Source: a virus
Lineage: Duplodnaviria > Heunggongvirae > Uroviricota > Caudoviricetes
Strand: one strand, 5' to 3'
Virus record (IMG/VR): IMGVR_UViG_2660238215_000004
DNA: 6,764 bases
Of the stretch, positions 3,001 through 6,000 are shown piece after piece (positions within the stretch are counted from its first letter, which is position 1; each line of letters opens with the position of its first letter). The position numbers were made by a program.

Positions 3001-6000
3001 GTAAGGCGCGTCGCCAGGGTAACCGCAATGCGTCGAATGTTTATCAGCTTAACGTTGCGAAGCTTCAGGCAGCGGCATTTTCTCAACTGTCAGATTCTGA
3101 CCCGTCAAAATCTGACGCATCAAAATCTGACCCGTCAAAATTTGATGCGTCGAAATCTGGCAAAAAAGCGGGTTTTCACCCGTCAGAATCTGGCGGGGAT
3201 CCGTCAGTAAAATCAAAACATGATCCGTCAGATAAAAAACCTTCTCGTCCGGACGCTTCGCAACCGGACACGCAGACGGCTGAACAGGATTTTTTAACTC
3301 GCCATCCTGATGCGGTTGTATTCAGCCCTAAAAAGCGCCAGTGGGGAACGCAGGATGATTTGACCTGCGCACAGTGGCTCTGGAAAAAAATCATTGCCCT
3401 GTACGAGCAGGCCGCCGAATGTGACGGCGAGGTGGTTCGTCCCAAAGAACCGAACTGGACAGCATGGGCAAACGAAATTCGCCTGATGTGTGTGCAGGAT
3501 GGTCGTACTCACAAACAAATCTGCGAGATGTACAGCCGCGTCAGCCGCGATCCGTTCTGGTGCCGTAACGTGCTCAGCCCGTCGAAGTTGCGGGAAAAAT
3601 GGGATGAGCTTTCCCTGCGCTTATCGCCGTCCGTCAGCACGCACACAGAAAAACGTGAAGACCCGTACTTCAAAGCCAGTTACGACAACGTGGACTACAG
3701 CCAGATCCCGGCAGGATTCAGGGGGTGATCATGAGTCTTTTGAATGACGTTCAGAAATTCATTGAAGCCCATCCGGGCTGTACTTCCGGAGACATTGCAG
3801 ATGCTTTTGCTGGTTACTCACGGCAGCGCGTTCTGCAGTCAGCAAGCAAGTTACGTCAGAGTGGGCGTGTGGCTCACCGTTGTGAAGGAGATACACGCAG
3901 ACATTTCCCGCGCCTGACTGAGAGAGCGCAGGAGCCGGAACCACAATCTGTTCGTGAAACCAGACCTGTGCGCAATTTCTATGTCGGCACTAACGACCCC
4001 CGGGTGATTTTGTGCCTGACCCGCCAGGCTGAAGAACTGGAGTCCAGGGGCTTATTCCGTCGAGCTGCAACGGTGTGGATGGCGGCATTCCGTGAAAGCC
4101 ACTCCCAGCCAGAACGAAACAATTTTCTGGCGCATCGTGAGCGGTGCTTACGGAAAAGCAGCAAGCGCGCTGCATCGGGTGAAGAGTGGTATCTGTCAGG
4201 GAATTACGTGGGGGCTTAATGAGTAATAAATATTGCCAGGCGCTGGTGGAGCTGCGGAACAAACCAGCCCATGAACTGAAGGAAGTGGGCGATCAGTGGC
4301 GCACGCCGGACAACATTTTCTGGGGAATTAACACCCTGTTTGGCCCGTTTGTTCTGGATCTGTTTACTGATGGTGATAACGCCAAATGTGCCGCTTATTA
4401 CACTGCGGAAGACAACGCGCTGGCGCATGACTGGTCAGAACGTCTTGCGGAGCTTAAAGGTGCTGCCTTTGGTAATCCCCCGTACAGCCGCGCCAGTCAG
4501 CATGAGGGGCAATACATCACCGGCATGCGTTACATCATGAAACATGCCAGTGCTATGCGTGATAAAGGCGGGCGCTATGTTTTCCTGATCAAAGCTGCCA
4601 CCAGCGAAGTGTGGTGGCCGGAAGATGCAGACCATATTGCTTTTATTCGCGGGCGTATTGGTTTTGAACTGCCTGCCTGGTTTATCCCGAAGGATGAGAA
4701 GCAGGTGCCGACAGGCGCTTTCTTCGCTGGTGCTATTGCTGTTTTCGACAAGACCTGGAAGGGACCGGCAATCAGCTACATCGGGCGCGATGAACTTGAG
4801 GCATGTGGTGAGGCGTTTCTGGCGCAGGTTCGCCAGCAGGCGGAAAAACTGGTCAGGGAGATGGCGGCATGACGACGTTAACTCAATGCCAGCAGCAGGT
4901 GCTGGATATGCTGATTTCTTATCAGAAAGAACGTGGCTTCCCGCCAACCAATCAGGAGGTGGCAACCATGCTGGGATACCGTTCAGTGAATGCAGCGGTG
5001 GAGCATCTTCGCGCACTGGAGAAAAAAGGCGTCATCACGATAAAGCGTGGTGTGGCCCGGGGGATCACGCTTCATACCGTGGTGAAGGACGACGACAGCG
5101 AGGCGGTCGGGATTATCCGCTCACTGCTTGCCGGTGAGGAAAACGCTAGGCTGCGTGCAGCCCATTGGTTACATGAGAGAGGCCTGAAAGTATGAAGCTG
5201 CTCCTGCCTTTTCCGCCCAGCGTGAACACGTACTGGCGACACCCCAACAAAGGGGCGTTTGCTGGTAAGAGCCTGATAAGCGCGGCGGGGCGAAAATTCC
5301 AGAGCGCGGCGTGTGCAGCAATAGTTGAGCAGTTACGTCGTCTGCCGAAACCAACGTCGGCACCTGCTTCAGTGGAGATCGTGTTGTTTCCTCCGGATAA
5401 CCGGATCCGCGATCTGGACAACTATAACAAGGCGCTGTTTGACGCCCTGACCCACGCGGGTGTGTGGGAAGACGACAGTCAGGTGAAAAGAATGCTGGTG
5501 GAGTGGGGACCGGTTATCCCGGAGGGGAAGGTCGAGATCACTATCAGTAAGTACGAAAAAGCGAGTTGCAAATTAGCAACTCGGTAACGGAATTGAGCAA
5601 CACCCTAAATTTGGGTATTACCTCGTTAAAGATACTGTATTTATGAACAGTGTATCCTTGATAACTATTAAAAATCGCAGTAAGTTCATCCGGCATCAAC
5701 GAAAAGGGAGTGCAGTCCCGCTCGTGGATAAAAATTTGTGGAGAAACCAATGAATCAGTTGCTTGTAATTGATGGCGTTTCTGTGCGCCAGTACTTCGAA
5801 TCTAACTACTGTCTTAACGACCTTCAGAAAGCTGCTCTTCTTGCCGCTGGTGAGAATCGCTCCTCCCGTTCGCTGGAAGTTCACGAGTTTATGCGTCGTC
5901 CTGAAACGAAGGCTCTTGTGGAATTATTGGAAGAAGAAACTACGGGAGATTCCCGTAGTATTCCTGTCATCACCATTCAGGGGCGCAATGGTGGGACGTA

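Follow-up and report, generated by a model that had tools for sequence, protein, structure and literature searches.

A LexA DNA-binding domain with a helical tail and no self-cleavage domain, encoded next to rusA in Escherichia coli lambdoid phages

IMG/VR record IMGVR_UViG_2660238215_000004 is assigned to a virus of the class Caudoviricetes. We analyzed a 6,764-nucleotide stretch of DNA from this record (the window), which spans the region from immunity to nin in an E. coli lambdoid phage. We found that a gene on the plus strand at 4869..5195 encodes a 108-amino-acid (aa) protein that is a LexA DNA-binding domain (DBD) without the self-cleavage domain. The best explanation of its sequence is that the product is a small regulator that binds DNA and descends from the N-terminal domain (NTD) of a proteobacterial LexA. 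Phage-borne truncated LexA homologues were already known. What is new is a variant that has a C-terminal tail, is linked to rusA, lacks Glu44 of LexA, and is extremely common in E. coli. We refer to this variant and its relatives as the tailed family.

Profile searches placed the similarity to LexA in the first part of the protein. Pfam LexA_DNA_bind (PF01726) matched residues 1-65 only (4869..5063, plus strand; E=2.9e-19; 69 bits against a cut-off of 23.7), which form a LexA-type winged helix-turn-helix (wHTH). The Pfam scan gave no match to the S24 domain (PF00717) in the 108-aa protein and no other significant Pfam match. Because there is no PF00717 match and the protein ends at residue 108, it lacks the domain that holds the Ser119/Lys156 dyad. 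The NCBIfam lexA equivalog TIGR00498 aligned over profile positions 1-91 of 203 only, with 71 bits against a cut-off of 110.95. With HMMER, the best matches among Protein Data Bank (PDB) sequences were E. coli LexA entries (E about 1e-15), and these alignments were colinear. SVNAAVEHL of the 108-aa protein aligned with SPNAAEEHL of LexA. Three features set the protein apart from canonical LexA: the missing S24 domain, a score below the equivalog cut-off, and an incomplete set of the DNA contacts described below. An earlier annotation of the window made from the sequence alone (the sequence-only reading) had described the open reading frame (ORF), the LexA similarity, the SVNAAVEHL alignment, the missing S24 domain, and a helical tail. 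ORF calling returned exactly the same coordinates, and the other four points were borne out by the searches above and the models described next.

Two AlphaFold2 models of the protein (mean pLDDT 78.9 and 83.1) had the same overall fold: three helices and a two-stranded wing, then a floppy linker, then helices at residues 74-88 and 93-103. The model of the DNA-binding domain superimposed on DNA-bound LexA (3jso) with an rmsd of 1.3 Å over 67 columns and 51% identity (Foldseek). Family alignments and the AlphaFold2 model placed the beta-hairpin wing at residues 56-68 (5034..5072, plus strand), with conserved R64-G65-I66. The two tail helices had a pLDDT of about 86. Together they form a family-specific helix-loop-helix (residues 74-103; 5088..5177, plus strand), defined by AlphaFold2 and family alignments, that is a candidate dimerization element. 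When the whole chain was searched with Foldseek, the structural analogues were wHTH repressors with helices after the wing, e.g., MntR, DtxR, and MarR. These proteins dimerize through the helices that follow the wing. A profile search of PDB sequences found no relative of the tail among solved structures.

The tail, 35-40 residues long in the 108-aa protein, is conserved in the family. Its motif, ..(I/L)(R/Q)xL(L/M) - loop - AR..A..(W/F/L)L...G, is kept in family alignments down to about 40% identity. The conserved positions are hydrophobic helix faces and not a scissile site. The sequence-only reading had overlooked that the alignment to LexA continues into the cleavage-site region. The HMMER alignment runs on to LexA residue 86, pairing LLAGE with VAAGE and placing A88-G89 opposite the scissile A84-G85. 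We considered LLAGE as a functional LexA cleavage site and rejected it. Relatives have LLANE, LLVGE, LLAGK, LLTGG, VERE, TRKE, QEMI, or ACSV at this position, and the segment is helical in both AlphaFold2 models, unlike the strand-loop of LexA. Because the Ala-Gly varies across the family and the segment is predicted to be helical, LLAGE is a vestige at most.

The gene is widespread. It was present in approximately 41% (2,233/5,426) of complete E. coli genomes, with up to 4 copies per genome, and the exact 108-aa protein was found on at least 1,000 contigs. There were thousands of E. coli entries of 106-108 aa, and versions in Citrobacter, Salmonella, and Hafnia. The protein matched phrog_362 (PHROG 362) over its full length, tail included (residues 1-108 against profile positions 1-106 of 106; E=2.4e-59). 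An exhaustive profile search found about ten further 50%-identity clusters that share the architecture of a DNA-binding domain plus a tail. The sequence-only reading had named a truncation by sequencing error as an alternative. We rejected it, given the thousands of genomes, the constant length of 106-108 aa, and the conservation of the tail.

Well-known phages carry the gene. The stretch from 4186 to 5587 was about 98% identical in PhiR49_1, mEp460, 1720a-02, and Stx2a and Stx2c converting phages, and Stx2k converting phages were also among the carriers. The 108-aa protein was 96-100% identical in cdtI and in SfII, SfIV, and SfV, which are Shigella serotype-converting phages. DBD-only LexA derivatives were common in phages more generally, and a viral structure library held many examples of 65-90 aa.

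Public labels for the 108-aa protein vary. The NCBI name is 'LexA family transcriptional regulator', and other labels are 'LexA-like protein', 'repressor, lexA family', 'SOS-response repressor and protease LexA', 'RecA-mediated autopeptidases', 'unknown', and 'hypothetical'. The protease and autopeptidase labels mislead, as the protein has no peptidase domain. We found no paper with experimental work on the enterobacterial tailed family, although our coverage of the literature was incomplete. The statement in the sequence-only reading that no characterized function was known thus stands for the enterobacterial family. A characterized precedent does exist, gp6 of phage GIL01, to which we return below.

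Separately, the searches returned proteins of 140-165 aa in which two LexA DNA-binding domains stand in tandem and S24 is absent (P0137, P0140, P0143, and P0129), and a representative profile search gave many LexA-domain matches in two stretches. Judging from their sequences, the four tandem-domain proteins would be single-chain pseudo-dimers, another way to bypass the LexA dimerization domain.

We found that the conserved linkage of the LexA-like gene is to rusA (Holliday-junction resolvase; 5192..5587, plus strand; Pfam and PHROG profile matches) and not to Dam. We compared 80 IMG/VR loci that contain a 97-100% identical LexA-like gene, using up to 10 kb on each side. The flanks were mosaic, and only the LexA-like gene itself and rusA were invariably linked, with rusA at +323 in 80/80 loci. 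In the window, the gene shares an ATGA with the upstream gene for a Dam-family methyltransferase (Dam stop codon and LexA-like start; 4869..4872, plus strand) and another with rusA (LexA-like stop and rusA start codon; 5192..5195, plus strand). The same overlap with rusA was found in mEp390 and in loci L086, L164, and L167. Dam was absent upstream in at least 24 of the 80 loci, where a PerC-family gene abuts directly, and it was absent in mEp390 too. We therefore rejected a conserved coupling to Dam, and the order of the conserved module is PerC - (Dam) - LexA-like - RusA. The sequence-only reading had the gene translationally coupled between Dam and rusA in an early-lytic operon. Both overlaps are present here, and only the one with rusA is conserved. 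The operon position was right: the gene belongs to the delayed-early (nin) genes of the rightward operon.

The position upstream of rusA in the nin region extends to divergent members of the family. It was found in mEp390 and in Kosakonia, Enterobacter, Citrobacter, and metagenomic relatives, and adjacency to rusA persisted at 43-65% identity. In divergent members the order was the LexA-like gene, rusA (directly or after one small ORF, as in L168), a KilA-N or Rha/ANT gene, DUF968, and Q. In our phage collection, every rusA allele at least 90% identical to that of the window was paired with a LexA-like gene. More distant rusA alleles were not: in ST64B and 118970_sal3 (79% identical RusA) and in Yersinia phages YeP2/YeP3 (61%), rusA immediately follows Dam, and the annotation shows no LexA-like gene in between. 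The LexA-like gene is thus an optional insert upstream of rusA, and RusA is independent of it. Conversely, the 6.9-kb locus examined from Klebsiella phage ST846-OXA48phi9.1 (L002) encodes a tailed homologue but gave no match to RusA, and in Edwardsiella phage EPP-1 rusA and the mini-LexA gene are not adjacent.

We scored SOS boxes in the carrier loci only, with a position-specific scoring matrix (PSSM) built from 21 known E. coli boxes. Those boxes score 12.9-27.0 bits, and we called a box strong at 15 bits or more. The two boxes that the sequence-only reading had listed in the window are real and strong: TACTGTTTTTACATACAGTA at 1312-1331, within the cI coding sequence (25.8 bits), and TACTGTATTTATGAACAGTG at 5633..5652, 5' of a KilA-N gene (21.7 bits). 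The latter is a candidate target only. A simple sigma-70 scan found no promoter adjoining either box. SOS boxes were strongly enriched in carrier loci (34 observed vs 2.5 in shuffles). Among CTGT-Nk-ACAG palindromes, k=8 alone stood out, and we rejected the idea that a different dimer uses an alternative half-site spacing.

The sequence of the window allele makes SOS-box binding plausible. The published DNA contacts of LexA helix 3 are Ser39, Asn41, Ala42, Glu44, and Glu45 (PMC3091678). In the recognition region of the 108-aa protein (residues 39-52, S39 V40 N41 A42 A43 V44 E45 H46...; 4983..5024, plus strand; from the alignment to LexA), these positions are S, N, A, V, and E. Four of the five contacts are thus kept, and Glu44 is replaced by Val. 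Identity to LexA reached 65% over the turn and helix 3 and 59% over the wing, vs 24% in helix 1 and 38% in helix 2. We counted this concentration of identity in the DNA-contacting parts in favor of SOS-box binding. In addition, the free LexA NTD keeps some SOS-box binding and repression, and because it still represses, cells remove it through ClpXP (PMC10584840). LexA NTDs bound to an operator also form an interface of their own, which cooperates with DNA binding (PMC3159453).

The 108-aa protein is similar to the LexA NTD fragment (residues 1-84) and to LexA(Ind-) in having the same fold, 51% identity, and 4/5 contacts. Like LexA(Ind-) mutants, it would be insensitive to RecA*. It differs from the fragment in having Val for Glu44 and a helix-loop-helix tail instead of the S24 dimerization domain, and in having a phage gene of its own, whereas the fragment arises by cleavage. 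Its C-terminus also differs, as it is not of the VAA type. Neher and colleagues reportedly described in 2003 that the VAA-type C-terminus of the free LexA NTD is a ClpX tag.

For the window allele, we tentatively favor the interpretation that the protein is a RecA-insensitive dimeric regulator of SOS-like operators, which we regard as quite possible if just short of probable. Induction or infection would lead to its synthesis from the rightward operon as a delayed-early protein. Inactivation by RecA* would be impossible because there is no catalytic domain and no conserved Ala-Gly, and the protein would lack the C-terminus that marks the LexA NTD for ClpXP. Based on the models, the tail hairpin would take over dimerization from the LexA C-terminal domain. 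The dimer would bind CTGT-type palindromes that resemble SOS boxes, and the Val in place of Glu44 may relax or shift its site preference. Overall, some LexA-controlled promoters would come under repression again during the destruction of host LexA. The KilA-N operator in the window, SOS genes of the host, and antirepressors that LexA controls in co-resident prophages are candidate targets. A stronger version, in which a RecA-proof mini-LexA re-occupies SOS operators early in lytic growth and thereby shuts off host SOS and the LexA-controlled antirepressors of rival prophages, seems to us on the unlikely side.

Several findings weigh against SOS operators as the target. We compared the five contact positions in 76 host LexAs (from a one-genome-per-species scan, which gave mainly host lexA genes) with those in 17 distinct representatives of the tailed family at a similar distance from the query. 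Ser39 was kept in all of both groups (76/76 and 17/17), and Asn41 in 76/76 host LexAs and 15/17 tailed proteins. Ala42 was kept in 76/76 host LexAs vs 12/17 tailed proteins, and Glu45 in 73/76 (plus 2 with Asp) vs 10/17. Glu44 was kept in 75/76 host LexAs and in none (0/17) of the tailed proteins, and its loss is, by this alignment, a signature of the tailed family. Because Glu44 is lost in 17/17 and positions 42 and 45 vary, reading of SOS boxes is not a family-wide constraint. The binding to SOS boxes put forward in the sequence-only reading therefore holds as plausible for the window allele and does not extend to the family. Some family members have diverged recognition helices (SVNTIAGH, SSNAVLLH, and SQNTVFIH), and on sequence grounds those with SVNTIAGH and SSNAVLLH almost certainly read something other than an SOS box. 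The LexA-like gene also evolves much faster than rusA (43-49% vs 75-77% identity). Thirty of the 80 carrier loci, and 16 of the 38 loci of at least 18 kb, had no SOS box of 15 bits or more within the region searched, up to 10 kb on each side. The box upstream of the KilA-N gene was found in only 10/80 carrier loci. We therefore rejected the phage's own SOS-boxed KilA-N gene, the antirepressor that the sequence-only reading had suggested might be re-repressed, as a conserved target. Finally, gp6 of GIL01, the only characterized phage homologue of the LexA NTD, has changed specificity and acts as an activator.

These findings might also indicate that the protein is a gp6-like regulator with its own specificity: a drifted, LexA-derived wHTH that represses or activates from an operator specific to the phage or host and times nin, late, or accessory genes. 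We consider this possible, with the chances clearly against it. GIL01 (Betatectivirus) gp6 is a truncated LexA homologue that activates the late promoter P3 and binds GaCACAnnTGTGaC, a different palindrome that overlaps the -35, at -43.5 (PMC6182141). It is a precedent for this explanation and shows that the LexA fold can be retargeted. The universal loss of Glu44 and the variation at 42 and 45, vs near-invariant host LexAs, fit this explanation, as do the many carriers without a nearby SOS box. The fast evolution of the gene relative to the adjacent rusA is what a diversifying specificity predicts. However, no co-inherited candidate operator was found in the 80 loci, nor was there a class of CTGT palindromes with alternative spacing. 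Four of the five LexA contacts are kept in the window allele, which resembles LexA most in helix 3 and the wing. Moreover, lambdoid late genes are already under Q, and late genes are behind Q in related prophages.

Two other explanations appear less probable. The protein could be a recombination accessory dedicated to RusA, one that targets or licenses the resolvase or that lowers the SOS-induced RuvAB competing for junctions. The start/stop overlap in 80/80 near-identical loci, the adjacency at 43-65% identity, and the pairing of every closely related rusA allele with a LexA-like gene would be expected of such a partnership. Against it are the RusA alleles that lack the gene (ST64B, 118970_sal3, and YeP2/YeP3), the tailed homologue of ST846-OXA48phi9.1 without a RusA match, and the separated genes of EPP-1, and we consider it improbable. 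It is more improbable still that the protein is a decoy or pseudo-substrate, with LLAGE docking in trans in the S24 site of host LexA or phage cI, or undergoing cleavage at that site, and so modulating RecA*-dependent cleavage of LexA or cI. The alignment through the cleavage-site region is in its favor, and Kim and Little reportedly described intermolecular cleavage by LexA and cI in 1993. However, relatives differ at the Ala-Gly, both models confidently predict a helix for the segment, and the conserved tail residues are on hydrophobic helix faces.

Although gp6 is a precedent, the window protein does not belong to the gp6 family. Both are LexA winged-helix domains without S24, encoded by phages that are wired to host SOS, and gp6 is expressed early, as the window protein probably is. 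They differ in that gp6 is a 66-aa activator with no tail, from a tectivirus of a Gram-positive host, and the window protein has 108 aa with a conserved tail. The essential Lys38 of gp6 aligns with LexA Asn41, and the window protein keeps Asn. BLASTP gave no alignment between the two proteins at E up to 100. From their sequences they look like separate derivatives of LexA.

The window also has features in common with LexA-controlled antirepressor circuits of temperate phages, which are described for Tum of coliphage 186, N15, and Salmonella Gifsy phages (PMC3121763). Like those circuits, it has an SOS box before a KilA-N gene, and boxes in relatives are before a Rha-family gene and small ORFs. 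It differs in that the cI of the window carries an S24 domain. To our knowledge, the described antirepressor circuits rely on host LexA alone and include no LexA paralogue from a phage. A LexA mimic resistant to RecA would make sense in this kind of circuit.

The SOS response governs prophage induction in E. coli, Shiga-toxin release, mutagenesis, and antibiotic tolerance. If the protein binds SOS operators, it would give phages a handle on the damage switch of the host and on the induction circuits of each other, with a bearing on when toxin is expressed and on what happens in polylysogens. In the stronger version above, it would be a phage override of the SOS switch and a weapon between competing prophages, including Stx phages. 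If the protein instead binds its own operator, it would represent a second, apparently separate, phage recruitment of LexA's DNA-binding domain after tectiviral gp6, with a new dimerization module.

Two relatives place LexA-like genes behind SOS boxes, which we counted, along with the two strong boxes of the window and the k=8 palindromes, in favor of SOS-box binding. In EPP-1 (L003, 4231-5210), a 25-bit SOS box (AACTGTATGTAAATCCAGTA) precedes a Rha-family gene, and the end of this gene overlaps the start of lexA_2, which encodes a 71-aa DBD-only LexA. The EPP-1 protein has the helix RSPNAAEDHLKAL, whose SPNAAEDH is close to the host form, and is 57% identical to the E. coli LexA NTD. From its sequence, the unit appears to be controlled by LexA and to contain a feedback loop through its own mini-LexA. 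The EPP-1 protein is like the window protein in being a LexA DNA-binding domain with no S24, encoded in the nin region, where its gene is upstream of DUF968 and Q. It differs in keeping Glu44, having no tail, and being behind a 25-bit SOS box. The window protein has a tail and no Glu44, and its gene is upstream of the nearest box. In L168 (5507-6408), there is a hairpin, a promoter-like TTGCAA-17-AATAAT, and a 21-bit SOS box right after the -10, followed by an operon of an 82-aa ORF, a LexA-like gene (135 aa), a 67-aa ORF, RusA, DUF968, and Q. The tailed relative in L168, P0132, keeps 4/5 LexA contacts, and the prophage repressor is 128 aa with a helix-turn-helix only and no S24 domain. This arrangement suggests that late genes in L168 may be controlled directly through host LexA.

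In L002 (1-969), a DinI gene is two genes upstream of the tailed LexA-like gene, which has a diverged helix (SSSKAVLLHL). DinI is a RecA* modulator. L002 would thus have two potential SOS-modulating functions adjacent to each other.

The other genes of the window were identified by ORF calling and by Pfam and PHROG profile matches. They are cI with its S24 domain (848-1540, minus strand), cro (1638-1898), a CII-like gene (1891-2442), an O-like replication gene (2787-3728), a PerC-family gene (PF06069; 3725-4219), and the Dam-family methyltransferase gene (4186-4872), followed by the LexA-like gene and rusA. The PerC family includes PerC and Pch, virulence activators of enteropathogenic and enterohemorrhagic E. 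coli (EPEC/EHEC). RefSeq phage records label the Dam-family methyltransferase 'phosphoadenosine phosphosulfate reductase'.

A gene for a KilA-N domain regulator (5750..6565, plus strand; ATG at 5750 after GGAG) is 3' of the SOS box at 5633..5652. The KilA-N gene after rusA has two mosaic alleles. The window allele, found in 10/80 loci, has a 150-bp leader and the SOS box at +764. The other allele, 68% identical and present in most of the remaining loci, abuts rusA and has no box. Because only the window allele carries an SOS box, LexA control of the KilA-N gene is allele-specific. At the 3' end of the window-type rusA (5561-5583) there is a perfect 8-bp inverted repeat, CGAGTTGC aaatta GCAACTCG. 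It scores as a terminator on the minus strand only, where no gene ends, and it belongs to the window-specific mosaic segment that also bears the SOS box.

The near-perfect SOS box within cI covers the linker codons T-V-C-K-N-S. It tracked its cI allele strictly (25/25 loci). A variant cI allele has a 27-bit box (TACTGTATATAAAAACAGTA), and the cI of L167, which is 71% identical, also has a 27-bit box inside the annotated gene. Judged by this pattern, the cI-internal box looks to be under selection. Another SOS box, TACTGTAAAAATAAACAGTG (22.3 bits), recurred at the extreme 5' end of a gene for a DNA methyltransferase with a DPPY motif, several kb downstream of the LexA-like gene. It was found in L021 (5453-5472), L022 (11078-11097), and about 15 other loci, and its position suggests that this phage methylase is regulated by LexA.

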